The notes under the pieces: model-generated
Databases searched by the model: none
What the model saw: the letters and a program-made list of their open reading frames with translations, nothing else
What the model was told of the DNA's origin: nothing
DNA from: an uncultured Bacteroidota bacterium
GTDB lineage: Bacteria > Bacteroidota > Bacteroidia > Bacteroidales > CG2-30-32-10
Length of the DNA: 64,000 nt
Direction of reading: 5' to 3'
NCBI GenBank assembly: GCA_963831005.1
Contig: CAWHOW010000016.1
Coordinates: 71,934 to 135,933 of the forward strand
Position numbers and translations under genes: made by a program
Shown: positions 108-59,333 of the stretch, piece after piece
Layout: each line of letters begins with the position of its first letter
Numbering within the stretch: position 1 is the stretch's first letter

Positions 108-944
108 GTGAAATTTAGTACAAAAACAAGGTATGGTATCAGGGCAATGCTTGAAATTGCATTGCATACCGAAGAAGGCGGAGTTTTCCAAAAAGATATT
201 GCCATTAACCAGGATATATCGATCAAATATCTTGATTATATAATCCATGCTTTGAAAGCAGAAGGATTAATTGCAAATGCCGGAGGGAAAAAAAGCGGAT
301 ATGTGCTTGCAAGAGACGCTTCAGAAATAACCATGTATGATATTCACAATGCTTTTGAATCGGGTATATGCATTGTTGACTGCCTTTCCAGTGACCTTAG
401 CTGCAAAAGAGATAAGAAGTGTGCTGTACGGAAGTTCTGGGTCGGGCTCAATGGCCTTATTATTGATTATTTAAACAATACTACATTGGAAGATTTAGTT
501 AACCAGAATTTTATTAATTATAAAAAAATCATTATCATGAAAAAGACCATTCTACTTGTGGATGATGACAAGGATCTCGTCCGCTCCATCCAGGTAATTC
601 TGGAAAACCAGAATTATACTGTTCTGACAGCCCACAACAAAGCTGAAGGAATGACGAAACTTAAAGAAGGAAAGCCTGATTTATTGGTTCTGGATGTAAT
701 GATGGATACCAATCTTGATGGTTACAACATGCTGCATGAAATAAAGAAAGAGCAGGAATTTAAATCTCTGCCCGTTATCCTGCTCACAGGCATGCTCGAT
801 GAACTGGGCGTAAACCTTGTAGCCGGTGTGGAAGATGAAGAATTATTTCCATTTGTCAGGTTCCAGGACAAACCTGTAGATCCTTTGCAATTATTGGAAA
901 TAATTAAGGAAATGCTGCAGGTTAAAACTGTTGAGGCTAAATAA
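108..944 (+). CDS. Rrf2-family (IscR/CymR-like, 3-Cys) regulator read in frame with a CheY-like receiver domain (receiver likely starts at ATG 537)
   Basis: STKTRYGIRAMLEIA, GGKKSGYVLAR and C-x6-C-x5-C; then ILLVDDD, PDLLVLDVMM, LLTG, DKP receiver motifs. Confidence 0.9.
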   Translation: MKFSTKTRYGIRAMLEIALHTEEGGVFQKDIAINQDISIKYLDYIIHALKAEGLIANAGGKKSGYVLARDASEITMYDIHNAFESGICIVDCLSSDLSCKRDKKCAVRKFWVGLNGLIIDYLNNTTLEDLVNQNFINYKKIIIMKKTILLVDDDKDLVRSIQVILENQNYTVLTAHNKAEGMTKLKEGKPDLLVLDVMMDTNLDGYNMLHEIKKEQEFKSLPVILLTGMLDELGVNLVAGVEDEELFPFVRFQDKPVDPLQLLEIIKEMLQVKTVEAK

Positions 945-1012: not shown

Positions 1013-2341
1013 ATGGACGAAAGGCTTCTTCCAAAGCATTTTGGTTTCGCAAAATGGTTGATCAGACTGCGATGGATAGCTATTTTACTTCTTGTTTTCT
1101 CAACATATTTTGTTGTTAATGTATTAAAAATTTCCATCCAGGAAACTCCTGTTTATATTCTATCTTCCATCCTTCTTTTACTCAATTGCATCTATTTACT
1201 CTTAGTAAAATATATTGCAAAAAAAGATACACTGATAGTTATTTCAGCCATCAGGAAAATTCTGCATTTTCAAATTTCAGCCGATCTTGTTATTCTTACA
1301 ATCATTCTTCACTTTTCAGGAGGAATTGAAAATCCTTTTATCATTTATTATATCTTTCACATGATAATTGTCAGTTCAGTGCTTACTCCTATTGAAAGCT
1401 ATATTCAAACTTCATTTGCTTTAATGCTGGTTGCTGCGCTTGCTTTTCTTGAATGTTTTGCAGTAATTCCTCACTTTCCCCTAACAGGATTCATTTCGCA
1501 GGGTTTCTTTCAAAACAAAATTTACATAGCAGGAACAGGATTCGTATTTGTCACTACATCTTATATAGTAGTTGGAATGACAAATTCCATTGTTGCCAAA
1601 TCGCGAAAAAATGAAGACGCATATCTGAAAGCCAACCTGGAACTGGAACAAAAAGACATAGTTAAAAATGAATATGTGCTTAGGGTAACGCATGATATTA
1701 AAGGTCATTTGGGCGCCATACTAAGCTGCATAAAAGTTCTTAAAACAAATATTTTTGGCGGTTTAAATGAAAAACAGGAAGAATTTGTTGGCAGGGCTTA
1801 CGAAAGAACCGATATACTTACCAGCTTTGTAAAGGATCTGCTTAACCTGACCAAGAAGCGACTAGAGAATAATAATAATGAACAGGAAGAATTTTCGGTA
1901 AAGGATTTAATAAATAAGATCGTTTCTGATGCAAAACTAAATGCTGAAGAAAAAGCTATAACTCTTGAAGTCTCTATTGATAACAGTATTGACAAACTAA
2001 AAGGAAATCCCTTTGCTATTGCCGAACTCTTTTCAAATATACTGTTAAATGCCATCAAATACACTCCTGAAAATGGCCAGGTAAAACTTATAGTTAAGAA
2101 TCGTCCCGACCTTATTATTGCAGAGATTTCGGATACAGGTATTGGAATTCCGGAAGAAGAAATTCCTAAAGTGTTTGATGAATTCTTCAGGGCAAGCAAT
2201 GTTAAAAATGATACTAAAGCAGGCTCTGGTTTAGGATTGGCTATTGCCAAACAAATTGTTACCAGCCACAATGGAAGGATATGGGTTGAAAGCAAGCTGG
2301 GTACAGGCACTAAATTTACATTTACTTTATCAAAAGCCTAA
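1013..2341 (+). CDS. Membrane sensor histidine kinase (HisKA + HATPase)
   Basis: Multiple N-terminal TM helices, H-box THDIKGHL, NAIKYT, DTGIGI, GSGLGLAI. Confidence 0.93.
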   Translation: MDERLLPKHFGFAKWLIRLRWIAILLLVFSTYFVVNVLKISIQETPVYILSSILLLLNCIYLLLVKYIAKKDTLIVISAIRKILHFQISADLVILTIILHFSGGIENPFIIYYIFHMIIVSSVLTPIESYIQTSFALMLVAALAFLECFAVIPHFPLTGFISQGFFQNKIYIAGTGFVFVTTSYIVVGMTNSIVAKSRKNEDAYLKANLELEQKDIVKNEYVLRVTHDIKGHLGAILSCIKVLKTNIFGGLNEKQEEFVGRAYERTDILTSFVKDLLNLTKKRLENNNNEQEEFSVKDLINKIVSDAKLNAEEKAITLEVSIDNSIDKLKGNPFAIAELFSNILLNAIKYTPENGQVKLIVKNRPDLIIAEISDTGIGIPEEEIPKVFDEFFRASNVKNDTKAGSGLGLAIAKQIVTSHNGRIWVESKLGTGTKFTFTLSKA

Positions 2342-2955: not shown

Positions 2956-3810
2956 TTATTCAACAACTATTTTTTCCAAAGTAGACTCATTATTTATTTT
3001 TAATCTTACAAAATAAATACCTTTTGCATAAGATGAAATATTGAATGTTTTATTCACTTCACCATTCATTCCGTTTTCTGAAATAAGGTCAGCAACTTTT
3101 CTACCGGTAATATCAATTATATCCATATTAACTGAAGAAATCCCTTTCAATGAGAATTTAACATTTAAGTTATCAGAAGAAGGATTAGGGAAAACCGAAA
3201 GATTATAATCCTTAGCAACTGCTTCAGCAATACCAACAGTAATATCAGAGCTAGGGGCATCGAAGTAGTGTAACAATAATCTCCAGATGTACGTACCATC
3301 ATTAATCAGCAGCTAATCCTGATGCATAAAATGTAACAGTGCCACTACCGGTAGCAGGAGCAGTCCATTTAAATGAAAAAGCATGTGAATCCAATGCGAT
3401 GTTTCCTGTTCCAGTTTGTACAACATACGACAAGCCATTGCAGATGATGCCTTAATGATTTTCAACATCAGGTGAAGAGTTAAAAGGGATAGCGTTCCAC
3501 CATTAGTAGTTGCATTTGTCAAAGCTTCGAAATCAAAACCAAATAGTGAATCTCGAGGAGTGCTATGAGAAACAGTAACAGTTACAGTGTATACAGAGTC
3601 GGGGTAATAGCCACCTGCAAGTGTAGGTACTGATGTAATGGCAATTGAGCCAGATCCTGAATTTACAGCAAAATCAGCGTGGCATTGTGTGCAGTCACCT
3701 TCAGAGTATGCACCGGTTTTACCAGCTTCTCCACCTGGCAAAAGAACTTTAAACGACATAGCACAAACCGCAACTATGGCAACTAAAATTAATGTAATTT
3801 TCTTTTTCAT
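2956..3810 (-). CDS. Second copy of the CxxCH + Reeler-like + T9SS CTD protein, broken by several single-base indels (ORFs 3313-3810 and 2956-3276)
   Basis: Near-identical to 3859-4701 (GDCTQCH, FGFDFEAL, PNPSSDNLNVKFSL...GIYFVRL); missing middle (HAFSFKWTAPATGSGTVTFY) is readable in shifted frames at 3260-3480. Confidence 0.8.
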
Positions 3811-3858
3811 TTCTATTTTATTTATGTTAATATTATTTAGTTAAGGATATGAATTTCA

Positions 3859-4701
3859 TTATTCAACAACTATCTTCTGAATAGTTATTTCATTATTAAT
3901 ACTTAATCTTACAAAGTAAATGCCTTTTTCATAAGATGAAATATTGAAAGTTTTATTTACTTCTCCATTCATTCCGTTTTCTGAAATAAGTTCAGCAACT
4001 TTTCTGCCGTTCATATCTATCATATCAATATTAACGGAAGAAATTCCATTTAATGAGAATTTCACATTTAAATTGTCAGATGAAGGATTAGGATAAACAG
4101 AGAAATTAATTTCCTTAGCAAGTACTTCCGAAATCCCAGCAGTATTTTGCATTACAGCCATAGAAGTAGTGTACACCCAGTCACCTGTAGTATTACCATC
4201 ATCATTAGCAGCTAAACCTGAAGTATAGAATGTTACAGTTCCAGTTCCGGTAGCCGGAGCAGTCCAGTAAAAGGAGAATGCATGTGAATTTTTGGTATTG
4301 TTACCTGTTCCTGTATGAACAACATCTGTAATAGCAGTAGATCCGTCAGCTTTCGTTTTCACATCAGTCGAAGGCGTTAACAAAGAAAGTGTTCCTCCGT
4401 TAGTAGTTGCATTTAATAATGCTTCGAAATCAAAACCGAAAAGCGAATCACCTGTCTGAGTCACAGTAACAGTTACTGTATATTTAGTACCAGGTACATA
4501 TCCGCCTGTAAGTGCAGGTACGGCTGTAATAGCAACTGAACCGGTTCCTGTATTTACTGCCCAATCGGAATGGCATTGGGTGCAATCGCCTTCAGAGTAT
4601 GCACCTGTTTTACCAGCTTCACCAGCGGGTATAAAAACTTTAAACGACATAGCGCAAACAGCAACTATGGCAACTAATGCTAATGTAATTTCCTTTTTCA
4701 T
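3859..4701 (-). CDS. T9SS-sorted protein with N-terminal CxxCH heme-c motif and Reeler-like (choice-of-anchor V type) domain
   Basis: Signal peptide, GDCTQCH, FSFYWTAPATGTGTVTFY, C-terminal VYPNPSSD...GIYFVRL...KIVVE. Confidence 0.85.
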   Translation of the reverse strand: MKKEITLALVAIVAVCAMSFKVFIPAGEAGKTGAYSEGDCTQCHSDWAVNTGTGSVAITAVPALTGGYVPGTKYTVTVTVTQTGDSLFGFDFEALLNATTNGGTLSLLTPSTDVKTKADGSTAITDVVHTGTGNNTKNSHAFSFYWTAPATGTGTVTFYTSGLAANDDGNTTGDWVYTTSMAVMQNTAGISEVLAKEINFSVYPNPSSDNLNVKFSLNGISSVNIDMIDMNGRKVAELISENGMNGEVNKTFNISSYEKGIYFVRLSINNEITIQKIVVE

Positions 4702-4790
4702 ACGTTTTTGTTTTAAGTTAATAATTAATTAAGTGATTTATTTTTTATTATTTATTTATTTCCATTTTACTTTTAGCATCTTTCATGCGG

Positions 4791-4857
4791 TAAAAATATT
4801 ACTGCTTATTCCATATGAAATTAATATTGCATTAATGACGCATTAATTTTACATTAA
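4791..4857 (-). promoter_or_regulatory. Four ATTAA direct repeats at 11-bp period (4820, 4831, 4842, 4853) plus variant -7 box (4791-4798)
   Basis: Exact periodicity; same layout at 10507-10574 and 54207-54273. Confidence 0.6.
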
Positions 4858-4885
4858 GGTTATCATTCTTATCATTAAATCGCAC

Positions 4886-4925
4886 CAAAGATACTAATAA
4901 TATTTATACTATCGTATATATAGGA
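4886..4925 (-). promoter_or_regulatory. -7 box TATCTTTG (4886-4893, minus) with palindromic operator TACTAT-N7-ATAGGA (4907-4925)
   Basis: Operator is the exact reverse complement of 10691-10709. Confidence 0.7.
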
Positions 4926-5163
4926 AATATATTCATTTATTTTAACTAAAATTAACAATAGTTTCTTGTTATGAATTTTATAATACAAAACAATACATGT
5001 TCTAATATATTAGATTGCAATTATTTAAATGCTTATTTGCACTTCGAAAACATACTGTTTTATAAAAATTAAACTATTTATCCTAGTTAATAACTTTTTT
5101 CCGTTTTGATGTATTTTTGATAATTTATCGTATTTTTGCATTGAAATCTCTAAATACTAAAAG

Positions 5164-5949
5164 ATGCCCAAACAAGTTCAAAGATTACTTATCGCCTTTG
5201 TGATTTTTGTTGGCTTATTTTTGCTCGCCAGGCATTTTCTGGTGCCTGCAACATTTGGCGATCTTGGTCACTACCGAGCTGACGCCATTAAAGATGCCAA
5301 AGATCATGAAGCAAAATACCTTGATACCATAGCCTGCAGAAGCTGCCATAAAGGAATAGATTCAGTAAAATCAGGAGGTGTCCATCAGGGAATTAACTGC
5401 CAAACCTGTCATGGAGCAGGTTATCTGCATGCTAAAGATCCTAAAAAGAATCCATTGACCAAACCTACCGAGAGAGAGTTCTGTGGTAAATGCCATAATA
5501 TAAATGCTGCAAGACCTTCGTTTATGAAACAGGTTGACATAAGCAAGCATAATACCAAAAGCAAATGCATTGTTTGTCATAACCCTCATAGTCCGGGATT
5601 TAAAGCAGAACTTCCTAAATCATCCACTTCGGCAGATAATTCAGCAAAAAGCAATGGAACTCAAATTGATGATGCAACATGCGGCAAATGCCATAATACT
5701 GAATACACTAAAAAACAATCAGGCGTTCATAAGCATAATAATTGTGTAATGTGCCATGGTGCAGGTGATAAGCATATTACAAATCCTACAGCAAATGTTT
5801 TGGTAAAGCCTAAAGGAAGAGCATTCTGCGCTCAATCCCACGGTACAGGTTCAACTACAAGCGGCATTAAGCAAATTGATCTGAAAGTGCATAATCCTGA
5901 CGGTGACTGCACCGATTGCCATAACCCTCATAGTCCAATGGATTTTTAA
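5164..5949 (+). CDS. Membrane-anchored multiheme cytochrome c (7 CxxCH + 1 degenerate CxxSH), CbcS/NrfB-like position
   Basis: N-terminal TM; CRSCH, CQTCH, CGKCH, CIVCH, CGKCH, CVMCH, CAQSH, CTDCH in two 4-heme repeats. Confidence 0.9.
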   Translation: MPKQVQRLLIAFVIFVGLFLLARHFLVPATFGDLGHYRADAIKDAKDHEAKYLDTIACRSCHKGIDSVKSGGVHQGINCQTCHGAGYLHAKDPKKNPLTKPTEREFCGKCHNINAARPSFMKQVDISKHNTKSKCIVCHNPHSPGFKAELPKSSTSADNSAKSNGTQIDDATCGKCHNTEYTKKQSGVHKHNNCVMCHGAGDKHITNPTANVLVKPKGRAFCAQSHGTGSTTSGIKQIDLKVHNPDGDCTDCHNPHSPMDF

Positions 5950-5976
5950 TACCTTATTAATTTATCTTCTAAAGAA

Positions 5977-6807
5977 ATGGAAACTGAAAATAATAATAAG
6001 AAAAAAAATACAAGAAGGGATTTTCTGCTTGCTTCAACAGCAATAGCAGGAGGCTTATTATCCATGTCCCTTCTTAAACCCCTGAAAGCTTTTTCAGGCG
6101 GTTCAGATGTGAAATCATCTCCTGCTGATACTGCCAAAGGTAATGCAAAGAATGCTGCTGCCGGAACAGCTCCAAACGATCATTGGTACGGATTTTATTT
6201 CGATATAGAAAAATGTATCGGTTGTGGAAGCTGTGCCAAAGCATGCAAAACGGAAAATGATGTTCCATTAGAACCATTCTTTTACAGGACATGGGTGGAA
6301 CAATATACCGTTAAAAATGACCAAACCGTTTTGATCGAATCGCCTAACGGTGGAATTGACGGCTTTAAACAAAGCGTTCCCAAGGAGGATATTTTCAAGG
6401 CTTTTATAGTACCAAAGGCTTGTAATCATTGCGCCAAATCGCCATGCGAACAGGTATGCCCTGTAGGAGCATCCTATCATACACCCGACGGTGTTGTACT
6501 GGTTGATCAGAGTTATTGCATAGGTTGCGGATATTGCGTGCAGGCCTGTCCTTACGGATGCCGTTACATGCATCCCGAAAAGCATGTGGTTGACAAATGC
6601 ACTTTATGTTATCATAGAATTTCTAAAGGAATAGAACCTGCATGTGTGGAAGTATGCCCTACCGGAGCAAGAATGTATGGTGACCTGCATGATAAAAAAG
6701 GACCTCTTGTTGCATTTCTTAAAGACCATAATTGTCATGTGCTTAAGCCCCAGCTTAACACCAAGCCAAAACTATTTTATAACGGATTAAGCGAGGAGGT
6801 AAAGTAA
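5977..6807 (+). CDS. Tat-exported 4x[4Fe-4S] protein, NrfC/PsrB family
   Basis: TRRDFL Tat motif; CIGCGSCAKAC, CNHCAKSPCEQVCP, CIGCGYCVQACP, KCTLC...PACVEVCP. Confidence 0.93.
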   Translation: METENNNKKKNTRRDFLLASTAIAGGLLSMSLLKPLKAFSGGSDVKSSPADTAKGNAKNAAAGTAPNDHWYGFYFDIEKCIGCGSCAKACKTENDVPLEPFFYRTWVEQYTVKNDQTVLIESPNGGIDGFKQSVPKEDIFKAFIVPKACNHCAKSPCEQVCPVGASYHTPDGVVLVDQSYCIGCGYCVQACPYGCRYMHPEKHVVDKCTLCYHRISKGIEPACVEVCPTGARMYGDLHDKKGPLVAFLKDHNCHVLKPQLNTKPKLFYNGLSEEVK

Positions 6808-6808
6808 T

Positions 6809-7996
6809 ATGGAAAATTTTAACAACTTATACGAAGCGCTAAAACATGTAAGCGGGTTTATTTACCCTAACGAAGTAAAACTCCAGTGGTCTGTACTCAT
6901 CGTGCTCTATCCTTATATAACAGGGCTTGTTGCCGGTGCATTCATCCTTGCATCATTAAACAGAGTATTTAATGTAAAGGCCCTCCGCCCTACTTACGAA
7001 TTATCGTTACTTGCTGCATTCTCATTTCTTCTGGTAGCCACCATGCCATTAATAGCGCATCTTGGGCAACCTCAGCGTTTCTATGAGATCATGATGACAC
7101 CGCATTTAACTTCTGCTATGGCTATCTTCGGCTTTGTTTACTTATGGTATCTGATGGCTGTACTCTTACTAGAGATTTATTTTGATTACAGGCAAGACCT
7201 TTACCTGTGGTCGAACCAAAAGAAAGGATTATTAAGATGGATATACAGGTTCCTTACATTGGGCGTTTACGACGTTTCACCAAAAGCATTGAAATGGGAT
7301 GAAAAGCTTGGTTATATTATTACAGTGGTTGGTATTCCTTCCGCTTTCCTCCTGCATGGTTATGTAGGTTTCATCTTCGGCTCTGTTAAAGCTAATCCTT
7401 GGTGGTCGTCGGTAATGATGCCTGTGATATTCCTGTTCTCCGCTATGGTTTCAGGCATTGCACTTGTATTGTTCCTGTATTTTGCAGTGAATATCATCCG
7501 CAAACAGAAACTTGATCTGGCTTGCTTGGATGCTATGGGCAAGTATCTTTTCTACATTCTTATTTTAGATTTCACGCTCGAGTCGCTCGACCAGATACAC
7601 CGCGTTTATGTGGCTGAAGAATCATTTGATATTATTTCGATATTAATGACAAAATTATTCTGGACACTTTCCATCATGCAGGTATTGCTGGGCACACTGA
7701 TACCATTGGTCACTCTTTTTATCTTCCAGCTTAAGAAGCCAAAGGAAGTGATAAGAAAAGTAAGTTATTTTATTATTAGCCTTCTGATTTTGGTTGGCAT
7801 ATTCTTTATGCGCTGGAACGTGGTTATCGGCGGACAGTTATTCTCTAAATCATTTGCGGGATTCACTACCTATAAAGGCGAATTCTTCGGCAGCGAAGGT
7901 TTCTTTGAGGCATTGGTTCTGATGATACTACCATTTGGCATTTTTGCTTTTATGCTGTGGTTCTTACCTCCATGGAAGAAGCAACACCAGTTGTAA
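6809..7996 (+). CDS. NrfD/PsrC-family quinol-interacting membrane subunit
   Basis: YPYITGLVAGAF, HLGQPQR, LHGYVGFIFG...NPWW, MRWNVVIGGQ; about 10 TM; follows NrfC-like gene. Confidence 0.92.
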   Translation: MENFNNLYEALKHVSGFIYPNEVKLQWSVLIVLYPYITGLVAGAFILASLNRVFNVKALRPTYELSLLAAFSFLLVATMPLIAHLGQPQRFYEIMMTPHLTSAMAIFGFVYLWYLMAVLLLEIYFDYRQDLYLWSNQKKGLLRWIYRFLTLGVYDVSPKALKWDEKLGYIITVVGIPSAFLLHGYVGFIFGSVKANPWWSSVMMPVIFLFSAMVSGIALVLFLYFAVNIIRKQKLDLACLDAMGKYLFYILILDFTLESLDQIHRVYVAEESFDIISILMTKLFWTLSIMQVLLGTLIPLVTLFIFQLKKPKEVIRKVSYFIISLLILVGIFFMRWNVVIGGQLFSKSFAGFTTYKGEFFGSEGFFEALVLMILPFGIFAFMLWFLPPWKKQHQL

Positions 7997-8082
7997 GATA
8001 TTTTACTCGAAGATAATTGAATTTGTTTTTAATAGCGTTGTTATGCTATGGAACTATGCGTTTCGAAGAATGACAAACGTTT

Positions 8083-8232
8083 GTCAGCCCTCGATACTTT
8101 CGCATCCTACGACAAGCTCAGGATGGCGAAAACTTGAACTGACAATTGTTACATCGAGTAGCGAAGCATATCGAGATGTGGCTTGTGTTAGTCCCACTTC
8201 GAGACGAGGCTAGTGCCTCTCCTCAGTGTGAC
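8083..8232. repeat. REP-like palindromic intergenic element
   Basis: Nested hairpins CGACAAGCTCAGGATG, CATCGAG..ATCGAGATG, CTTCGAGAC..CTCAGTGTGAC. Confidence 0.6.
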
Positions 8233-8299
8233 TACTATTTGAAATGTGAACAAATTGGTTTAATGCAAATATTATTTTAAGCAATTCCTTAACAGTACT

Positions 8300-9942
8300 A
8301 TGCTTCAGGACGAGAACAAAACTGACCTTGAAAACATCTTATCAAAGTTAAATTCTCTCGAAAGCCGGATGATCCGCATCGAAGAAGAACTTGGTATTGA
8401 TTCAAGTATTTCCTCGTCCGCTGCATCTGAAAAGGTCGGCATTGATGGCATAAATCAAGACTCCGCAAAAGAAGAGAATGGTTTTGAATCGCGCATCGGC
8501 GGTTACGGTCTTGCACTCCTTGGCAATATTGTTTTTCTTTTCGGACTGATATTCTTTTCCAATTACATCCAGGGTTCAGGCTATCCTGCATTATCCGGCA
8601 TCTTCGGATATGCCTGCGTGGCAGGCATATTTATCCTTGCCCATTTTGCTAAAAAGCGTATCCACTATCTTTCCGTTATGTTCGAAATGGTTGGGTTCAT
8701 CATGGTATATTATGCTACTATGAGGCTGCATTTCTTTTCCGCTCAGCCGCTCATAAGCGACATTTATTTTTCCAGTTTGCTGCTTCTTATAGTGCTGGTT
8801 TCACTGTTTTATTACACTGTCCGCAAGCGTTCGGAACTGTTTGCTGTCACTGTATCAGTACTTATAATAGTGTCGGGAGTGATAAGCGATTCCTCTGACA
8901 TGATGCTTGACTCGGCTGTGCTTGCTTCAGCAGCCTCGTGTATTTCTTTTTCAAATATAACTGGAAAAGCTCTTTGCTGTCGTCCATCTTTATGGTGTAC
9001 CTCGCTTTTGTAATATGGTTCATGAAAAACCAGCAGGCAATAGCAGCAAAGACAGATGTTATCCATAACAACTACAGCTATATATATCTTTTTGCCTGCG
9101 CCGTTATTTTTTCTCTTACCTGCCTTGTCCGCGCAAGGGAGAAGCTTACAACTGTTTACCTGATGACGGCCGCATTGTTTAACGGCATCATGTTCTCCTG
9201 CTTGCTGCTGCTATATACACCTGCCTTATACGCCGATATTTTCACCACGCTCTTTATTGTCATTTCCATATTCTGCATGATATATTCCATCCTGTTGAAA
9301 TCCTATTCTGCATGGAAATTTGCAAAAGCCTTTTATGCCATGTATGGTTTTGTGGCTATCAGCATTTCCGTTTACGGCATCTTCAAGTTTCCTTATACTT
9401 ACCTGTTGCTTACCCTGCAAAGCCTGTACGTGATAAGCATTGCCCTCTGGTTTCGCTCCAAGCTGATGATATCTATGAACACTTTTCTTTTCCTGGCTTT
9501 GCTTATAGTGTATTTTATCAGCGGCGACATAAGGGATTCCATAGATTTCTCTTTTGCCGCCACTGCCTTCATTTCGGCTGCGGTTATTGACTGGCGCAAA
9601 AAATATCTTGAAATAGAAGCCGACCTGATGCGCAATGTTTACCTGGCTACGGCTTTTTGCTCCACCCTGTTTGCATTATACAAATCCCTTCCGGCACAAT
9701 TCATCACCTTGTCGTGGACAGTACTGGCGATAGGATATTTTGTTTACAGCATCATTTTTAAAAACGTGCGCTATCGCTGGATGGCTATTATCACCATGAT
9801 TGCTGCCGCTTTTTATTTATTCCTTTTCGACCTTTCACGCATTTCACTTGTGTACAGGATAATTGCATTCCTTTTCCTTGCCATCATTTCTATCAGCATC
9901 TCGCTTTATTACAACAAGCCAAAGAAAGACGTTGAAGAATAA
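8300..9942 (+). CDS. Polytopic membrane protein (DUF2339-like), frameshifted near 8935 (ORFs 8300-9013 + 8938-9942)
   Basis: Coiled N-terminus, FESRIGGYGLALLG, many TM helices, C-terminal YLFLFDLSRISLVYRIIAFL; the two ORFs overlap and continue one hydrophobic pattern. Confidence 0.7.
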
Positions 9943-10029
9943 TTCCAATTTCTGAATTTAGAAGCCAAAAGTGAAATTAAGTATACCCTTTTAACACAAA
10001 GGAAATAAGTGCAATCCGTGAAAACGATA

Positions 10030-10485
10030 TTAATATTTATAACAATATAATGGTGTAACTGTAAAACCAGAAGGCGCGGTACTTTTGCCAACAGGTATTA
10101 CATTTATAGTTTCACTGTAAGCAATTTCATTTGAATTGTTGTAGCACAATAGTCTATAATACAGATTTGCCACTATCGGCGATTCATCAGTAAAGTAATA
10201 AGCAATATCATTTCTTGAAGCAGTACCATAACATTTAATGTAACCTATCACTTCAAATTGCGCTGCATCTAGTGATCGCTCTACTGCCAACGTTCTGGTT
10301 TCAGTATTGTTGTTCACGGTGATATGCAAATAAACTTTACCATTCAGATATTTGCTGTCAAATGCCTTAATATGGCTAAGTTTTTGTTCGTTCGAATTTA
10401 CAGTACTCAACATTAATGACTGTGAATTAAGCTGTAAAGAAGCATTCAACAATAGAAGTATGAATGTATATATTGTTAGTCTCAT
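10030..10485 (-). CDS. Secreted hypothetical protein, single Ig-like module of the type that usually precedes T9SS CTDs
   Basis: Signal peptide; AVERSLDAAQFEVIG, YYFTDESP, LYYRL, YSETI. Confidence 0.7.
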   Translation of the reverse strand: MRLTIYTFILLLLNASLQLNSQSLMLSTVNSNEQKLSHIKAFDSKYLNGKVYLHITVNNNTETRTLAVERSLDAAQFEVIGYIKCYGTASRNDIAYYFTDESPIVANLYYRLLCYNNSNEIAYSETINVIPVGKSTAPSGFTVTPLYCYKY

Positions 10486-10506
10486 GAATTTTATTATTTG
10501 TTAATG

Positions 10507-10574
10507 CAAAATTACTCGCCATTGCAGAATAGATTGATTAAGATAAGATTAAATACTAATTAATATTAAGTTAA
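10507..10574 (-). promoter_or_regulatory. -7 box TAATTTTG (10507-10514) with four (A/G)TTAA repeats at 11-bp period (10537, 10548, 10559, 10570)
   Basis: Direct reading; same geometry as sites at 4791 and 54207. Confidence 0.6.
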
Positions 10575-10690
10575 TACAGCAAACTGCTTTTTAGTATAGT
10601 TATCCAACAGGATAAAAGAATGTTTTAAGAAATTTATCTTATTAAGCATATTGTCTTCTTAAAAATTTGTTATTTTTTTCATAATATATT

Positions 10691-10709
10691 TCCTATATAT
10701 ACGATAGTA
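10691..10709 (+). promoter_or_regulatory. Palindromic operator TCCTAT-N7-ATAGTA upstream of the imcH-like operon
   Basis: Identical to reverse complement of 4907-4925, with extended flanking identity. Confidence 0.7.
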
Positions 10710-10920
10710 TTAATATTTTTTGTAAATTGCAGCCAAATTTCAGGCTTATTTTAGCTTTACCGAAGTAGAAAAATTGATGTATTTCATTGTAAACACTTAC
10801 TATTGCTTGTTAAAACATTCACATCCTGTACTAATTGCCAGGATGTCATTTTGATTTACATTTACCCTGACCTGAATTTGCTAATTTTTAAAAAAAAGTA
10901 ACATTATATAAAGTTCAAAG

Positions 10921-12420
10921 ATGAAACTACCGGACTCATATCGTAACCCAATATCCATACTGGGTACCATCATTGCTTCTATTGCATTCACTACTATAGT
11001 TCTTTTAATAGCAATGACATATTTCTTTCACGTTGGCAGTGTTTATTTCGACCTTTTTACATTCATAGTCGTTCCCATTTTCCTGGTTGGCGGACTTGTA
11101 CTTATCGCCTTCGGGATGTTCATGACATGGAGAAAAAAGAAAAGAGGCGGTAAACGATTTCCCGAGATCAACCTCAATGATAAAAAACAACGTAATGCTG
11201 CTACTATATTTATTGTTGTCACGGTGGTTTTTATAATTATGACAGTAATTGGAACCAATGAAGGCATTAAGTATTCTGAGTCAAGAGAATTCTGCGGAAC
11301 GATGTGTCACAAGGCTATGAACCCTGAATATGTGGCTTATCATCATGGCCCTCATGCAGAAGTTTCGTGTTCAGATTGTCATGTTGGTGAGGGAGTAGAT
11401 TATTTTGTAAAAGCAAAAATATCAGGGATGCGCCAGTTGTATAAATATATCACAGGCAGTTATAACAGGCCAATCAGTACGCCTATCACTAACCTGCGCC
11501 CTGCAAGCCAGACCTGCGAAAAATGCCACTGGCCCCAGAAATTCTATACGTATCTATTAAGAAGTGAAAAATATTTCCTCACAGATTCAGCCAATACTGA
11601 ATGGGATGTGGTACTTAAGATGAAAGTTGGTCCTGATAACCCCGCGCTTGGACTTGCAGAAGGCATACACTGGCATATCAATTCCGACATAAAGATAGAA
11701 TACAAGGCTAACGAAAAGAGAGATACTATTTACTGGGTAAAGGTCATCAATTCCAAAACAGGAAAAGAAACTGTATTTCTTGATGAAGCACAGACATCAA
11801 TCAAGATGAATGATATCGACAAGATTGAATCGCGCACCATGGACTGCATGGACTGCCATAACCGTCCTGCGCATGAATACCGTTCTCCTTCAAATTTTGT
11901 AAACAGTTTATTGATCGCTAAGAAGATTCCAGCCTATCTGCCATGGATAAAAAAGATCGCTATGGATGCCTTATGGAACAAAGAATATTCAACATTGGAT
12001 AGTGCAAAAGAAGGGCTCTCTGATTATATCCTGGGAGCTTACAAGAAGAATCATCCACAGATTTTTACGAAATATAATAAAGAGATAAAAGATGCTATCT
12101 CCTATATACAGGAAGAATATTCCCATAATGTTTTCCCTGAAATGAAGATAAACTATTCAACGTATCCAAGGCATATAGGTCATCTTGAAACTAATGGCTG
12201 TTTCAGGTGCCATAACAATACCTTTAAATCTGCCGATGGAAAGGTCATCTCAAATAACTGCGACTTATGCCATACCATACTTGCACAGGGAGCAAAGGAT
12301 ACAGTGAAATATACGAACATCAGCAAATCATTGGAGTTCAAACACCCCATTGATATTGGCAATATATGGAAAGAAGCCCATTGTCGCGACTGCCATAATG
12401 AATTATACAAAACTCATTAA
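10921..12420 (+). CDS. imcH: ImcH-like inner-membrane heptaheme cytochrome c (NapC/NirT domain)
   Basis: Three N-terminal TM helices; FCGTMCH (CX3CH), CSDCH, CEKCHWP, CMDCHNRPAH, CFRCH, CDLCH, CRDCH; architecture matches Geobacter ImcH. Confidence 0.85.
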   Translation: MKLPDSYRNPISILGTIIASIAFTTIVLLIAMTYFFHVGSVYFDLFTFIVVPIFLVGGLVLIAFGMFMTWRKKKRGGKRFPEINLNDKKQRNAATIFIVVTVVFIIMTVIGTNEGIKYSESREFCGTMCHKAMNPEYVAYHHGPHAEVSCSDCHVGEGVDYFVKAKISGMRQLYKYITGSYNRPISTPITNLRPASQTCEKCHWPQKFYTYLLRSEKYFLTDSANTEWDVVLKMKVGPDNPALGLAEGIHWHINSDIKIEYKANEKRDTIYWVKVINSKTGKETVFLDEAQTSIKMNDIDKIESRTMDCMDCHNRPAHEYRSPSNFVNSLLIAKKIPAYLPWIKKIAMDALWNKEYSTLDSAKEGLSDYILGAYKKNHPQIFTKYNKEIKDAISYIQEEYSHNVFPEMKINYSTYPRHIGHLETNGCFRCHNNTFKSADGKVISNNCDLCHTILAQGAKDTVKYTNISKSLEFKHPIDIGNIWKEAHCRDCHNELYKTH

Positions 12421-12488
12421 TAGTGGAAGAATTTATTAGAAACAATAATTCGTTTGCATAATAAGAGGATCATTTTAAAACATTAAAT

Positions 12489-14940
12489 ATGACTAAAGAA
12501 TACAGACCGGTAAAAAGTGTTTTGCTCCTTCTTATCAGTTTATTTTTTATAATTGGTAAACTAACGGGGCAGTCAAACGATGACTGCTTAACTTGCCATG
12601 AAGATCAAACAATGACTGCTAAATGGCAGGGTTCAACGATTTCTTTATATGTTAATAAAGCTAACTTTTATAATTCTGTTCATAAGAATGTTGCCTGTGC
12701 TTCCTGTCATAAAGATGCTGCCGTAAAAGACTTCCCTCACCCCGAGAACCTCAAGCCTGTTGAATGCGGCAGTTGCCATGCGGGTTTCCAGGAGCTCGTC
12801 AACAACGATATGCATCACAAATTAGTGAACCTGCCGCCAGATAAAGCTCCTACCTGCAAGATATGCCCACGGTACACATGAAATTGTGAAGCCTTCTTCA
12901 ATTCCCAACAAAGCTGTTGCTATTTGCGGGAAATGCCATAAGGTAGATAAGCTCTCCGCTCCATACCATACTGATAATCTGGTTGAAAATAATTGCCTCA
13001 ACTGTCATAAGAAAAAAGATTACAGGGCTATGCTTTCCAAGTCAGTTCATACTAAACTGAAATGCTCCAATTGCCATGGATATGTAGTTAACAACCTTGC
13101 CACTCACCGTACTCTGCCGAAAGATGAAGCTACAACTGATTGTTATTTATGCCATGCAGCCATTGCAGCAGAACATAAAGAAAGCATACACGGACTTGCG
13201 CTGTCAGAAGGCATCAACGAAGCTGCACAATGCTGGGATTGTCATGGAACGCATAACATCTTAAAAGTTACAAATGACAGCAGCAAGGTATCTGCCAAGA
13301 ATCTTCCAGCTACTTGCGGCAAATGCCATGACGATTCATTATTTATTTTGAAGCATAACTTCACTGTTAAAAACCCGGGGAAAATGTATTCCCAATCGGT
13401 TCACTGGAAACTTGTAAATGGAGGGAGCAAGGATGCCCCGTCTTGCATAAGCTGCCATAGTGCACATAGTATCAAGAACAGGGTTCAGCAGAACACTACA
13501 ATTTCAAGCGTTGCAGTACCTGACCTTTGCGGGAAATGCCATGCTAAAATTGAAGAGGAGTACAAAAAATCCATTCACTGGTTAGCTGTGAAGAAAGGGG
13601 TGCGTGAAGCGCCTTCGTGTAATGACTGTCATAGTGAGCATGCTATTCATGCAGTAAATACAAATCACAAAAGAGCTGCCATAGAGAAATTACAGGAAGA
13701 AACCTGCCTGCAATGCCATCAGAATTTATTGCTTTCACAGCGTTACGGAATGGCTGCCAACAATGCTAAAAGTTATCAGGACAGTTATCATGGCTTAGCT
13801 GTGGCGAGAGGAGATACCAATGCTGCCATGTGCATAGATTGCCACGGAGTGCACAGCATATTGCCCGCAAATCATAAGAACTCCACCATCAACCCAAAGA
13901 ATGTAACAGCTACCTGCAAGAAATGTCATCACGATGCTACAGAGATATTTGCAAGAAGTTATTCTCATATCACCGACAAGAAAACACCGGCCGGACATGT
14001 GGAAAATGTTGTAAGAAACATTTATTTCTGGTTAATAATTATTGTTGTTTTCGGAATGATTGTGCATAACCTTATTATTTTATTTTATGAATTAAAAGAA
14101 AGATACAAGAAATCAAAAGAGGAGATACGGATACCACGGTTGACAAGAAATGAATTGGTACAGCATACAATATTATTTGTATCCTTTATTATTCTTGCAA
14201 TAACAGGGTTTCAGCTTAAATTCCCTGATAGTTGGTGGAGTCATGGATTGCAGTATTTTGGGCTTACTGAAAATGTGAGACGTGAAATTCACAGATGTTC
14301 AGCTACAATTATGATCACGCTTTCATTGTATCATGTAATATATTTAATTGTCACTTCAAGAGGCCGTGAAGTATTAAAAGGAATGTTACCAAAGCTTGCT
14401 GATTTTAAACTGGCATGGACAAATATGCTCTTCTACCTGCGATTAAAGAAACAAGAACCTGAATTTGATAATTTTACTTATATAGAAAAAGTGGAGTACT
14501 GGGCTTTGATCTGGGGAACTGTTATAATGGGGCTTACTGGTTTTGTTCTTTGGTTCCCTACAATTGTAGGTAACTGGGCGCCGGTGTGGTTCATTAAAGT
14601 TTGTGAAATAGTGCATTTCTATGAAGCTATACTGGCAACACTAGCTATTATAATATGGCATTGGTTCTTCGTCATGTTCCATCCCAAAGAATATCCGGTA
14701 AGCTTTACGGTAATAAACGGTCAAATGACACTCAGGCATTATAAAGCAGAACACAGATTGCAAATTGAACGAGTTTATAAAGAATGGGCTGATATGAAAG
14801 CCGGAAAACTCAGTGTGAAGAAGCTCAGCAATTTTACCAAACTATTTATTGCTGCTATTGAAAAAGCAGGATATAATGCGGATGAGTTTTTTCAGAAAGA
14901 AATGACCAATGAAGAAAACCATGCCGGTGATAATAAATGA
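12489..14940 (+). CDS. CbcL-like multiheme c (16 CxxCH) fused to FdnI/HydC-type cytochrome b; +1 frameshift in CCC at 12866-12868
   Basis: Removing one C restores CKICHGTHEIVKP; C-terminal LVQH, ITGFQLKFP, IHR, EKVEYWALIWG, VHFYEAILA, WHWF. Confidence 0.87.
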
Positions 14941-14959
14941 TAAACCTTATTATTAAATA

Positions 14960-17741
14960 ATGATGGGAAATAACGTTAACAAATGGATGGCATTACTATT
15001 TGCATGCTTTTCACTAAGCATAGTAAATGCCATTGCACAGACAAATGAGGACTGCCTTACCTGTCACGAAGATGCAACCTTATCAAAGGTGAGCAATGGC
15101 AAAACAATTTCTTTGTTTGTCAATAAGAATATCTTAGGAGGTTCTGTACATGCCGGATTAAAATGTGTTTCCTGTCATGCTGATGCTGCTGTTACAGATT
15201 TCCCCCATCCAGAAAACCTTAAAGAAGTTGAATGCGGGAAATGTCACGGTACTGAACTGATACAATACAGTGGAGGTGTTCACGGGCAGGCTTCAAAGTT
15301 AAATTCTCCTTATGCTCCTACTTGTAAAGATTGTCACGGAAAACATGACATACTGGCTTCCGCTATTCCTACGTCCCGTACCTTTAAATTCAATATTCCT
15401 GCATTATGCGGCAGATGTCATAAAGAAGGCTCTCCTGTATCCAACATGTACGATATTTCACAAACCAATATACTTGATAACTATAGCGAGGGCATACACG
15501 GTGTAGGCTTATTGAAAAAAGGTCTTATTGTTTCTGCAACCTGTAACGACTGTCATGGGAATCATCTTATACTGCCTCATACAAGCCCTAATTCGACAGT
15601 GTCACCTCAGAGGATTGCAAGCACATGCATGAAATGCCATACAAAGATCGAAGAGGTGCATAAAAAAATAATTAAGAACGAACTTTGGGAAACAAAACCC
15701 GGAGCCATCCCTGCCTGCTCGGCATGCCATCCTCCTCATAAAGTATCGATAGATGAAAGCGTTCAATCTATTGCAGATATTGCCTGTTTAAAATGTCATC
15801 AGGATCCGGAAGTACACAAAACTGTTGATGGTAAAGACATATCGTTAACAGTAAAAGTGTCCGATATGGAGAGTTCCGTGCATAAGAATATTTCATGTAT
15901 TAAATGCCATTCGGATTGTGATATTACGTTGTCACGACCCTGTTCAACTACTAAATCTGTTGACTGTTCCAACTGCCATATCTCTGTTGCCGACCTTTAT
16001 TTTACAAGCGGTCACGGTAAAGCATATCTTAAAAAAGAAAAGAATGCGCCATTCTGCACTGATTGCCACGGCACCCATAATATAAAGACAAGATATGATG
16101 ACACTTCACCTACTTACAGGGCTAATATTCCGGGGCTTTGCGGAAAATGTCATAATGAGAACGGGAAAGCTGTAAAGACCACTAAATTAAAAGAGGTTAA
16201 TGCTTATGCTGATTATTCATTAAGTGTCCATGGGAAGGGATTAATGGAGCAGGGACTTTTGGTAAGCGCTGTTTGCTCCGACTGTCACACTTCGCACCAT
16301 ATACTTAAAGAATCGGATACAGCTTCTTCAGTAAATCCGAAGAATATTTCCCTTACATGCTCAAATTGCCATAAGAGCATTTATGAGGAATATATTGTAA
16401 GTGACCATTCCATTAATAAAGCTGACGGGAAACACAAATACCCAACCTGTGCCGATTGCCATTCTGCTCATGTTATCACGGCAATAGATAACGATAAATT
16501 TATGACACAGATTACTACTCAGTGCGGAAGCTGTCATGAAAAATTAGCGGAAACCTATCTTGAAACCTATCATGGGAAAGCATATCTTCTGGGATACCTC
16601 AAAGCAGCAAAATGTTCCGATTGCCATGGTTCGCATAATATCTTAAAAGTTAACAATCCAAATTCAGCAGTAGGATTTAAGAATATTGTGAATACATGCA
16701 GGAAATGTCACAGTTACGCAAATCTGCGATTTACAGGTTACCTGACACATGCTACACATAATGCCAATAATGTTTTGTTCTATACCTTCTGGGGAATGAC
16801 GTTGTTGTTGCTTGGCGTATTTGGGTTCTTTGGCCTGCATACCATGTTATGGATACCAAGGTCAATTATGGAAGCAAGGAAAAAACGCAATCATAAGAAG
16901 CCTGAAGGAAAAGCGGAATATATAAGGCGATTTACACGCAGCCAGAGGGTGACACATATTTTTGTCATAGTTAGCTTCTTATCACTTGCTTTAACAGGCA
17001 TGACATTGAAGTTCGCCCATATGCACTGGGCAAGGATAATTGCCGGATTCTTCGGAGGAGTACGCGCTGGCAGGAACTATTCACAGGATGGCGGCAATAA
17101 TTACATTCGGATATTTTATATATCACGTTTTCTCATTGTTGCGCGAAAAGAAGCAGAAAAAAGAAAGTCTGATAAAATTTATATTCGGGAAAAATTCACT
17201 GATGTTCAACAAGCAGGATATACGAGATTTTATTGGAACTGTTAAATGGTTCATGGGCAGGGGGCCACGACCGCTATACGGCAGATGGACATATTGGGAG
17301 AAGTTCGATTACATGGCTGTATTCTGGGGTGTTGCAGTAATCGGCTTATCAGGATTGATCCTTTGGTTTCCCGAAATATTCACAAGCGTTCTTCCCGGCT
17401 GGATGATAAACGTGGCGCAGATCATACATAGCGATGAAGCCTTGTTAGCTGTCGGTTTCATTTTCACCATTCACTTCTTTAACACGCATCTTAGACCCGA
17501 ATCATTCCCGATGGACACAGTAATATTTACTGGTCATGTTCCGCTGGAAGAATACAAAGCCGACAGGCCGCGCGAATTTGCAGAACTGGAAGAATCAGGC
17601 AAGTTGGAAGATGTAAGAGTAACCACTGAAATAACAAGCTCCTGGTTAAAGATAGTGAAGACAGCAGGATTCATTTTCCTGAGTATCGGACTTATACTGG
17701 TACTGCTTATACTGTTCTCGCTGATAACAGGATCGTATTAA
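14960..17741 (+). CDS. Second CbcL-like multiheme c (19 CxxCH) fused to cytochrome b; +1 frameshift near 17063
   Basis: 19 CxxCH counted; QRVTH, LTGMTLKF, then IHRMAA, YGRWTYWEKFDYMAVFWG, IIHSDEALLAVGFIFTIHFF in shifted ORF 17040-17741. Confidence 0.87.
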
Positions 17742-29003: not shown

Positions 29004-29151
29004 GTTACAATGGTAGTGTCCTGAAAAGGGTGTAAGTTACCTTCCTTTTAAAGAAAGGCGTGGGAAATGGGGTGAATGAGGAAATGGTGGCAGTTTTAAT
29101 TTTATTGAGAAAATTGCTTTACTTTTGTTTTTAAAATTATATTGTGATTTT

Positions 29152-56868: not shown

Positions 56869-56890
56869 TTGTTTATTTTTTTAAATTACA

Positions 56891-56978
56891 TGCCTGCCTG
56901 TCTTCGAGACGTCCCGCGTCATCTTGAGGAGAGAACCGTCTCGAAAGAAAGCGGGACTCCTCTGACTGACGGCAGGCA
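56891..56978. repeat. GC-rich palindromic (REP/MITE-like) insertion inside the operon
   Basis: Ends TGCCTGCCTGTC / GACGGCAGGCA; inner TTCGAGACG/CGTCTCGAA and GTCCCGC/GCGGGAC arms. Confidence 0.65.
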
Positions 56979-57015
56979 GTGTTGTTGTGAAATTTATTGT
57001 TCATAGCATTTCATC

Positions 57016-58035: not shown

Positions 58036-58038
58036 GTT

Positions 58039-58890: not shown

Positions 58891-59333
58891 ACAATAGCTT
58901 CAATAAAATTGGTTGTTGATAAATTACGAAATGAGTTATAAGCTCCGAGTTTTTTAATTTCCTCAGTAAAATTATTTACTATTTCAGCCCATCGTGCACC
59001 TTCTGCAGCAGATACCCATGAGAACATAACCCTGTTCACATCAATTCCTGTGAATTTAGCAAGGTCTCTGAATATGATCCATCTTCTTCTTGCATGAAAA
59101 TTTCCGCTGGTATAATGACAATCATTAGGGTGACATCCGGAAACGATAATTCCATCCGCTCCAAGAGTAAATGCTTTAATAAGCATCATGAAGTCTATTC
59201 TTCCTGTGCAGGGGGCGCGAATTATCCTCACATTGGATGCATATTTTATCCTGCTTGTGCCAGCAAGGTCAGCACCGGCATAGGTACACCATGTGCAGAC
59301 AAAAGCAACTATCTTAGGTTTATATTCGCTCAT
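58887..59333 (-). CDS. mvhD: MvhD/FlxD [2Fe-2S] subunit
   Basis: FVCTWCTYAGADLAG, PCTGRID, GCHPNDCHY, WVSAAEG. Confidence 0.93.
   Translation of the reverse strand: MSEYKPKIVAFVCTWCTYAGADLAGTSRIKYASNVRIIRAPCTGRIDFMMLIKAFTLGADGIIVSGCHPNDCHYTSGNFHARRRWIIFRDLAKFTGIDVNRVMFSWVSAAEGARWAEIVNNFTEEIKKLGAYNSFRNLSTTNFIEAIV

Follow-up and report, generated by a model that had tools for sequence, protein, structure and literature searches.

What would a soil bacterium do with some fifty heme-binding motifs encoded within 15 kb of DNA? The question is raised by a 64,000-nucleotide stretch, here called the window, which covers positions 71934-135933 of contig C16 (CAWHOW010000016.1, assembly GCA_963831005.1) in the genome of an uncultured soil Bacteroidota. 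This genome (G000) amounts to 5.15 Mb in 64 contigs and is 96.7% complete with 4.5% contamination; C labels denote its contigs, G labels the genomes of relatives and L labels related loci. Between window positions 2956 and 17741 lies a cluster of three gene groups: a minus-strand pair encoding monoheme proteins tagged for the type IX secretion system (T9SS), a plus-strand operon of the NrfCD type, and a plus-strand operon with an ImcH-type cytochrome and two cytochrome c/b fusions. The cluster is best read as an inner-membrane quinone-to-heme hub whose most likely purpose is extracellular electron exchange, a reading given a probability of roughly 0.55. An outward direction of electron flow and a role in Fe(III), humic or partner-cell respiration are presumed parts of it.

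The reading frames of the cluster contain 49 CxxCH motifs and one CX3CH, in agreement with the figure of about 50 given in an earlier note on this DNA, and every gene that the note had named is found in its place. As assembled, the CxxCH motifs are distributed over T9SS copy B (1), T9SS copy A (1), a heptaheme cytochrome (7), the NapC/NirT protein (6, plus the CX3CH), fusion 1 (3+12) and fusion 2 (19). A six-frame scan of the 64-kb window returns 57 CxxCH motifs, 49 of them in the frames of the cluster and only 8 in the remaining ~49 kb, all six frames counted. Genome-wide, ten open reading frames (ORFs) carry two or more such motifs, located on C16, C33 and C15, plus two diheme proteins on C28 and C42, and five of the ten belong to the cluster. 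Because of these counts, the observation is real and far from chance.

The most recognizable component is the ImcH-type protein. ImcH of Geobacter sulfurreducens is an inner-membrane 7-heme NapC/NirT quinol oxidase that serves high-potential acceptors. The product of the gene at 10921..12420 (+) is 499 aa long and has hydrophobic N-terminal helices at residues 13-31, 45-63 and 93-111, a CX3CH motif at residue 125, CxxCH motifs at residues 150, 199, 309, 427, 447 and 488, and a NapC/NirT domain (PF03264, 48.9 bits; cut-off 24.1). Its sole relative in the PDB is NrfH (2j7a, E 2e-9). In the accessible part of a published survey, ImcH homologues are described as proteins of 495-519 aa with three N-terminal helices, an adjacent atypical CX3CH and six (5-9) CX2CH motifs (PMC6295460), and all of the family features examined (helices, CX3CH with six CX2CH, length and NapC/NirT domain) are present here, as in the Geobacter protein. 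Its setting is unlike that of Geobacter ImcH, since the host is a soil Bacteroidota and the neighbors include a DUF2339 protein and the c/b fusions.

Sequence identity gives indirect evidence of a relationship to Geobacter ImcH. Homologues outside Geobacter are reported to share 31.5-49% identity with G. sulfurreducens ImcH and are listed in Melioribacter/Melioribacteraceae and Caldithrix genera, among Fe(III) reducers that include Melioribacter roseus (PMC6295460, accessible part). The full-length identity of the 499-aa protein to proteins from Melioribacter/Melioribacteraceae and Caldithrix metagenome-assembled genomes is 47-50%. At least 599 related stretches occur in species-representative genomes, and the best 80 of these, which form the basis of all counts out of 80 given below, have 44-58% identity and come mostly from Bacteroidales, Marinilabiliales-type genera (Marinifilum, Tangfeifania, Draconibacterium), Ignavibacteria/Melioribacteraceae and Calditrichota. 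Comparison with a protein atlas gave family-level leads only, in Bacteroidota, Verrucomicrobiota, Acidobacteriota and Thermodesulfobacteriota.

Directly downstream are the two c/b fusions. Fusion 1 (12489..14940, +) consists of a signal peptide, 16 c-heme motifs and a C-terminal b561/FdnI-type membrane domain (Ni_hydr_CYTB, PF01292, 52.8 bits; cut-off 30.1). Fusion 2 (14960..17741, +) combines a signal peptide and 19 c-heme motifs with a C-terminal b-type membrane domain, whose split C-terminal piece scores 26.7 bits for PF01292. Six histidines of the membrane domain are invariant in 11/11 homologues, and the four that fall in the fusion 2 piece are present. The two fusions are tandem paralogues with only ~28% identity between them. 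An intact orthologue of fusion 1 in genome G011 has 818 aa and is 71% identical, while intact homologues of fusion 2 (928-937 aa, 18-19 hemes) are encoded at L008, L012, L027 and L042. MtrC/F-like domain matches occur in fusion 2 and in a collagen-repeat multiheme protein considered below; no useful PDB relatives were found for the fusions, the heptaheme cytochrome or the 6-heme protein. By predicted domain order, both fusions fit the CbcL/MtoC/MtrH architecture, with an N-terminal periplasmic multiheme domain and a C-terminal diheme b domain of HydC/FdnI type with conserved histidines. CbcL carries 9 c-hemes; unlike it, the fusions described here have 16 and 19, stand as tandem paralogues and have no mtrAB or mtoAB genes nearby. 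Members of the family are reported to carry between 3 and 23 heme motifs (PMC6295460, accessible part).

The heme counts of 16 and 19 in the earlier note are borne out, although it had read through frameshifts that split both genes in the assembly, at positions 12866 and 17069. These positions were checked by comparing the assembly with Logan short-read contigs from four runs of two studies; the best-matching run is possibly the sample behind the assembly, and the second study is an independent one. Base 12866, which lies in a CCC run, is missing from the contigs of 4/4 runs (one contig each), and base 17069 is missing from those of 2/2 runs with depth there. When base 12866 is deleted in silico, fusion 1 becomes a single 816-aa ORF that has 16 CxxCH motifs and no internal stop; deletion of base 17069 does the same for fusion 2, which then has 926 aa, 19 CxxCH motifs and again no internal stop. 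The frameshifts that split the c/b fusions are assembly errors, and on this read evidence the possibility that the fusions are pseudogenes was rejected. Further bases present in the assembly and absent from short-read contigs are 3293, 3304 and 8211-8213. Apparent pseudogenes in this assembly can thus be single-base insertion errors, and read-level checking is needed. A possible further case lies at 34338-41370 (-), where two large LamG-domain ORFs of 1227 and 1123 aa share a 23-base overlap on the same strand; the T9SS domain is found only in the downstream ORF, and the pair may be one indel-split gene.

The first of the two plus-strand operons opens with the heptaheme c-type cytochrome (5164..5949, +), which has 7 CxxCH motifs, cytochrome c3/c7 family matches and a single N-terminal membrane anchor, a hydrophobic helix at residues 9-27; a Pfam search gave no match to the NapC/NirT domain (PF03264). 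It is followed by a periplasmic iron-sulfur protein of the NrfC/TtrB/DsrO type (5977..6807, +) with a twin-arginine leader, four Cys groups and 4Fe-4S dicluster domains in Pfam (Fer4_11, 90.3 bits), whose best NCBIfam matches are TtrB, DsrO and NrfC, all below the equivalog cut-offs. The third gene (6809..7996, +) encodes an NrfD-type integral membrane quinol-interacting subunit with ~9 hydrophobic helices (PF03916, 113.9 bits). The fourth (8300..9942, +) encodes a polytopic membrane protein of the DUF2339 family (PF10101, 24.3 bits, below cut-off) and has one frame break near 8940 in the assembly. Its orthologue in G011 is intact at 558 aa, and relatives occur in 12/80 ImcH loci. The NrfCD module and ImcH both have DUF2339 as a conserved partner.

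The trio of multiheme cytochrome, NrfC and NrfD had been described in the earlier note as lacking any molybdopterin or NrfA catalytic subunit, and no molybdopterin domain is encoded on the contig. In this, and in its make-up of anchored multiheme cytochrome c, four-cluster iron-sulfur protein (4x[4Fe-4S]) and membrane-integral subunit, it is similar to Cbc4 (CbcSTU) of G. sulfurreducens, which likewise has no catalytic subunit. The cytochrome of Cbc4 (CbcS) is described, in the accessible text, as a membrane-anchored NapC/NirT tetraheme (10.1101/2025.04.14.648717); that of the present operon is instead a 7-heme protein of c3/c7 type, and DUF2339 forms a fourth member. Because its cytochrome is not a NapC/NirT tetraheme, the trio is Cbc4-like and not a member of Cbc4. 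A further parallel is the NrfCD cluster of M. roseus, which also lacks a molybdenum subunit and has been proposed to feed periplasmic multiheme cytochromes and an outer Fe(III) reductase (PMC3534657, accessible part). Unlike that cluster, the NrfC/NrfD pair described here is operonic with the heptaheme cytochrome and DUF2339.

Comparable minimal modules occur elsewhere in this genome and in other Bacteroidota. At C34:64500-73600 (L087), genes for an NrfC-type protein, an NrfD-type protein and a monoheme cytochrome c stand directly upstream of SCO1 and the caa3 oxidase, with SprA as the next gene, so that the oxidase has an NrfC/NrfD/monoheme module of its own. This trio is a minimal quinol:cytochrome c oxidoreductase without ActA and ActB. 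An NrfC/NrfD/monoheme trio is also found beside ImcH in 9-10 of the 80 loci. Alternative complex III is defined by a molybdopterin-like ActB subunit, a pentaheme ActA and two NrfD-type subunits; neither C16 nor C34 encodes a molybdopterin-like (ActB) domain, and each locus has a single NrfD gene. The interpretation of the hub trio as a module of a nitrite, tetrathionate or sulfite reductase, or as Alternative complex III, was rejected, as no catalytic partner was found in the genome.

Taken by architecture, the claim of a Geobacter-like inner-membrane hub holds for the ImcH-type protein and for the CbcL/MtoC/MtrH-type fusions, and only loosely for the Cbc4-like trio. The claim that such a hub is present in a Bacteroidota also holds, but it is not new to the phylum: in the accessible part of the survey, Bacteroidetes are already represented by 1 ImcH and 5 CbcL-type homologues, and further ones are given for Ignavibacteriae and Calditrichaeota (PMC6295460). 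Because both families had been reported in Bacteroidetes, the hub counts as a further member of known families, in a phylum from which they had been described.

The electrons collected by such a hub require a destination. The genome encodes complex I, a caa3 oxidase, a bd oxidase and qNOR. Only two molybdopterin domain matches occur in it, one in NuoG and one in an NAD-linked cytoplasmic enzyme. A periplasmic terminal reductase elsewhere in the genome, which the earlier note had named as an alternative electron sink, was looked for among multiheme ORFs, NosZ, NirK and molybdenum enzymes; none was found in the 96.7%-complete genome, which has no NosZ, NirK or NrfA-like multiheme protein, NirS and sulfur enzymes being outside the search. 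About 50 hemes and three quinol modules thus stand without a periplasmic enzyme to serve, and an extracellular partner is therefore favored. A separate electron-transfer cluster in the window, at 56029-61056 (-), resembles heterodisulfide reductase systems and adjoins genes of the tricarboxylic acid cycle; its products are an MvhD/FlpD-like protein, a Fer4_22 protein, an Fe-S protein of the NAD-binding/DHODB type and a pyridine-nucleotide-disulphide oxidoreductase that contains 4Fe-4S domains.

Candidates for the outer end of the route are encoded by the minus-strand pair. Copy A (3859..4701, -) is a protein of 280 aa with a signal peptide, a CxxCH motif at residue 40, a choice-of-anchor V (Reeler-like) domain and a type A T9SS C-terminal domain. 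It scores 92.4 bits for choice-of-anchor V (NF041895; cut-off 42), 27.4 bits for Reeler and 49 bits for TIGR04183, and its Por_Secre_tail domain (PF18962; cut-off 27) scores 60.9 bits. Copy A has the features of T9SS type A cargo, namely a sorting domain and a hydrophobic N-terminus, and the secretion machinery is present in the genome (SprA_N, 552 bits, on C34). Copy B (2956..3810, -) has the same choice-of-anchor V and T9SS C-terminal domains and is broken in the assembly by several frame breaks into at least two ORFs, of which the N-terminal one has 1 CxxCH and scores 36.9 bits for NF041895, below the cut-off, and the C-terminal one scores 64.1 bits for PF18962. Read through its frame breaks, copy B is 62% identical to copy A. 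Bases 3293 and 3304 are omitted in the contig of one short-read run, and their omission alone fails to restore the frame.

The heme motif of these proteins is strongly conserved. Residues C40, C43 and H44 of copy A are invariant in 32/32 aligned relatives, the spacing between the cysteines varies, and a Trp-Thr-Ala-Pro stretch is also conserved. An AF2 model of copy A (pLDDT 87) predicts a Reeler-like sandwich followed by the C-terminal domain and matches the F-spondin reeler domain 2zot (TMt 0.60). The fold search with this model returned no cytochrome fold; the other matches were generic two-sandwich structures, and only 2zot was informative. The protein collection holds 122 relatives of similar length, nearly all T9SS-tagged and none functionally named.

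Gene order in close relatives connects this pair to the hub. Thirteen genomes represent the family of the host, and four of them hold the hub; in three of these four (G000, G011 and G006) tandem choice-of-anchor V/T9SS genes adjoin it. The whole cluster is colinear in G011, with identities of 90% for NrfD, 71% for fusion 1 and 77-80% for ImcH, and its two tandem choice-of-anchor V/T9SS genes are found at the corresponding place, again in divergent orientation. In G006, a tandem pair lies directly upstream of the fusion 1 orthologue, and in G009 the choice-of-anchor V copy is on a different contig from the hub. In the tree, the copies of G011 and G006 group together, an unlinked third copy of G000 being near sister to them, and copy A of the window falls in another clade, which is well supported. 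The position next to the hub is thus taken by family members that are not orthologous to each other, which points to function and not to inherited gene order alone.

Other genomes place the same domain, or the same secretion route, in related surroundings. An operon composed of one or two small c-type lipoproteins, a DUF5777 beta-barrel and one or two choice-of-anchor V proteins is found in G003, G004, G005, G034 and G044, which span at least three families; the choice-of-anchor V proteins of these operons are either ~180 aa long without a T9SS domain or 270-350 aa long with it. T9SS-tagged heme proteins of any kind occur in 2/80 ImcH loci, both as 9-heme MtrC/F-like cargo in Melioribacteraceae. 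These cytochromes (L017:6719-9295, -, 858 aa; L024:14945-17674, +, 909 aa) are encoded within a few kb of ImcH, and their T9SS domains score 36.2 and 39.8 bits (cut-off 27). T9SS cargo is common in the host in general, with at least 35 C-terminal-domain matches in the genome and at least 5 in the window. One of the cargo genes of the window, at 18399-24197 (-), encodes a 1932-aa protein with NHL repeats, DUF11 and five GEVED domains, arranged in repeated modules that are nearly identical.

It was proposed in the earlier note that the usual porin-cytochrome conduit is missing and that T9SS cargo supplements or replaces it. The first part agrees with the data, since the MtrB/PioB porin (PF11854) has 0 matches in the 96.7%-complete genome. 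Replacement by T9SS cargo, in contrast, is not needed, because a candidate outer-membrane set is encoded elsewhere in the genome, on C33 and C16. In other Bacteroidota this candidate set—a monoheme lipoprotein, DUF5777 and a collagen-repeat multiheme protein—stands directly beside ImcH. Among the 80 ImcH loci, a collagen-repeat 6-heme MtrC/F-like lipoprotein is found at 22; a ~130-aa monoheme lipoprotein, the DUF5777 beta-barrel and a Crp-type regulator at 20 each; a second monoheme protein at 17; a 7-heme protein, a separate b561 and a c554-like tetraheme protein at 16 each; CcsBA at 13; the c/b fusions at 7-8 and the heptaheme-NrfC-NrfD module at 5-9, next to the 12 already given for DUF2339. 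L012 unites all of the recurrent parts in one stretch, a c/b fusion and the heptaheme-NrfC-NrfD-DUF2339 module among them.

In the host genome, the second cytochrome locus lies at C33:8000-19000 (L082) and encodes, in order, an Rrf2 regulator, a monoheme lipoprotein, DUF5777 (205 bits), a fused CcsBA of 1051 aa, a 159-aa T9SS cargo protein, a 545-aa pentaheme protein, a c554-like tetraheme protein and heme biosynthesis enzymes. The search for heme maturation genes called for by the earlier note was answered here, by CcsBA. The pentaheme protein has a fibre-like N-terminal domain (mosaic adhesive trimer) and collagen repeats, with two in-frame stops followed by a conserved C-terminal stretch, and resembles a cytochrome head carried by a trimeric stalk. 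Another DUF5777 gene (294 bits) is found at C16:44300-48250 (L114), 24 kb upstream of the window, where a single strand carries genes for a T9SS-tagged cupredoxin, two lipoproteins (a cupredoxin and a monoheme protein), an OB-fold protein, a YceI protein and DUF5777. The group makes up a second candidate locus for redox chemistry at the surface.

The DUF5777 protein is modeled (pLDDT 80) as a barrel of ~12 strands and ~250 residues that resembles NanC, FapF and OmpG. Its gene lies within 10 kb of ImcH in six of the nine ImcH-positive genomes among 60 relatives compared, the other 51 being ImcH-negative. A predicted complex of DUF5777 with the adjacent monoheme lipoprotein scored 0.00 in a run without controls and is evidence neither way. 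The set follows the logic of MtrCAB and the Geobacter porin-cytochrome conduits, with a periplasmic cytochrome, an outer-membrane barrel and a surface cytochrome, and includes MtrC/F-like matches. It differs from them in the missing MtrB/PioB match, the small barrel, the monoheme partners and the delivery of some surface partners by T9SS. Cyc2 of iron oxidizers is a fused monoheme cytochrome-porin and likewise combines one heme with a small outer-membrane barrel; unlike in Cyc2, the heme protein and the barrel are here separate genes, and the barrel belongs to DUF5777.

These components suggest a possible path for electrons. Complex I and other dehydrogenases would reduce quinone, and, judging from family membership, three kinds of module (the ImcH-type protein, the two c/b fusions and the heptaheme/NrfCD/DUF2339 system) would oxidize quinol and pass the electrons into periplasmic heme wires. 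The periplasmic heme chains may then transfer them to an outer set built on DUF5777 and probably encoded outside the window, and at the surface, where the route would end, the T9SS monoheme proteins would most likely accept or donate electrons. On this basis it can be proposed, tentatively, that Bacteroidota possess a trans-outer-membrane route of their own, in which ImcH-/CbcL-type quinol oxidases feed a small 12-strand barrel (DUF5777), a monoheme protein of Reeler fold and one or two small c-type lipoproteins. T9SS would deliver the monoheme protein to the surface in some lineages, and multihemes or cupredoxins in others. Fe/Mn reduction has been reported in Labilibaculum (PMC9765461, accessible part).

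Several observations weigh against extracellular electron exchange as the purpose of the cluster. The crossing of the outer membrane is the weakest link, because the modeled 12-strand barrel would be too narrow to enclose a folded cytochrome, and an MtrB/PioB-type porin was not found. DUF5777 is not specific to the hub, occurring in 8/9 ImcH-positive and also in 22/51 ImcH-negative relatives; the choice-of-anchor V N-terminal domain is found in at least 5/9 and at least 11/51, respectively. The co-occurrence of T9SS genes and cytochrome cluster that the earlier note expected in relatives is seen within the family; the choice-of-anchor V/T9SS monoheme gene is present in 0/80 of the more distant ImcH loci. 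No cytochrome neighbors were seen at any of six unlinked choice-of-anchor V loci examined (L090-092, L105, L110 and L113). A related-locus search with the T9SS monoheme protein recovered just three loci with the N-terminal domain, and none of them has cytochrome neighbors. A covalently bound heme on the choice-of-anchor V domain is suggested only by the invariant motif. The hub itself is patchy, being present in 9/60 relatives and not found in a same-genus genome that is 86% complete. Likeness to ImcH, CbcL and Cbc4 of Geobacter was judged by the features described for these proteins. Finally, the caa3 oxidase, bd oxidase and qNOR of the organism allow an aerobic or inward-flow role.

Inward flow is the first alternative to be considered. 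Electrons from Fe(II) or another reduced donor at the surface would then reach the caa3 oxidase or, through the c/b fusions, the quinone pool. The genome has caa3 and bd oxidases, and the CbcL/MtoC/MtrH family, in the accessible part of the survey, occurs in both Fe(III) reducers and Fe(II) oxidizers (PMC6295460). The T9SS-tagged cupredoxin and cupredoxin lipoprotein beside the second monoheme/DUF5777 pair, together with the Cyc2-like combination of a monoheme protein and a small barrel, are in line with such a role. Nevertheless, oxidase (COX) genes occur in none of the 80 ImcH loci, and the homologues of ImcH known by 2018 came only from Fe(III) reducers as far as the accessible part of the survey goes (PMC6295460). 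Inward flow is an unlikely explanation.

It is similarly improbable that the multihemes end in the periplasm, reducing soluble substrates such as selenite/tellurite, chromate, polysulfide or nitrogen oxides or storing electrons, with the T9SS genes as bystanders. Fusion 1 has weak NCBIfam matches to ExtN/ExtO of a selenite/tellurite operon (E ~2e-5, far below cut-off), the NrfC subunit resembles TtrB and DsrO as well as NrfC, and T9SS cargo is so frequent in this genome that chance adjacency is not rare. The catalytic subunits of such systems were not found in the genome, however, and chance would have to account for T9SS heme genes adjoining the hub in three genera, in two arrangements and from two subfamilies, while elsewhere the choice-of-anchor V heme domain is operonic with an outer-membrane barrel. 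Least probable of all is an assimilatory or protective role, in which DUF5777, monoheme and choice-of-anchor V proteins handle surface iron or copper for uptake or detoxification and the hub supplies a trickle of electrons: Reeler-type domains accompany ferric reductase domains in eukaryotes, Rrf2-type regulators stand beside both loci, cupredoxins and a YceI protein belong to the second DUF5777 locus, and DUF5777 and choice-of-anchor V genes are common among hub-free relatives, but ~50 hemes and three parallel quinol modules are out of proportion to such a task.

Extracellular electron exchange remains the preferred reading of the cluster, and the genes that flank it on the upstream side may contribute to its regulation. 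The gene at 108..944 (+) encodes an Rrf2-type regulator (107.5 bits) fused in frame to a response-regulator receiver domain (Response_reg, 63.1 bits, Pfam), an unusual architecture with the four-Cys cluster typical of Fe-S-binding Rrf2 proteins. It is followed by a histidine kinase gene (1013..2341, +; HATPase_c, 101.2 bits, Pfam), whose product is probably paired with the upstream receiver domain and has relatives in 12/80 ImcH loci. The Rrf2/receiver protein is a possible regulator of the cluster, and Rrf2 genes also occur beside the C33 DUF5777 locus and near the hub in G032. Within the cluster, a gene at 10030..10485 (-) encodes a small secreted hypothetical protein of 151 aa without Pfam or NCBIfam match and without relatives in the 80 ImcH loci; it was not assigned to the system. 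Further downstream, a low-GC patch (0.31-0.34) at 29125-31445 (+) carries genes for a DNA methylase with HEAT repeats and a CfrBI-type restriction endonuclease.

T9SS cargo has been studied mainly as proteases, glycanases and adhesins. No published link between T9SS and the multiheme or redox proteins of extracellular respiration, and no literature on DUF5777, was found in a search of the literature other than subscription journals and supplementary tables, and none of the matches listed for the choice-of-anchor name deals with this domain. Within the reach of that search, three elements appear to be new: the coupling of T9SS-tagged heme or copper proteins to the system, the DUF5777/monoheme/choice-of-anchor V module, and DUF2339 as a fixed partner.

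Bacteroidota abound in soils, sediments and anoxic reactors and are generally regarded as fermenters or aerobes. If the preferred reading is true, T9SS would be a secretion pathway for the redox proteins of extracellular respiration, and DUF5777 and choice-of-anchor V would become families with a testable function. The recurrent cytochrome set, with at least 599 related stretches, would make members of this phylum participants in electrode communities and in the redox cycling of metals and humics. The cluster and its export-tagged heme proteins suggest a little-studied way for the phylum to exchange electrons with its surroundings.

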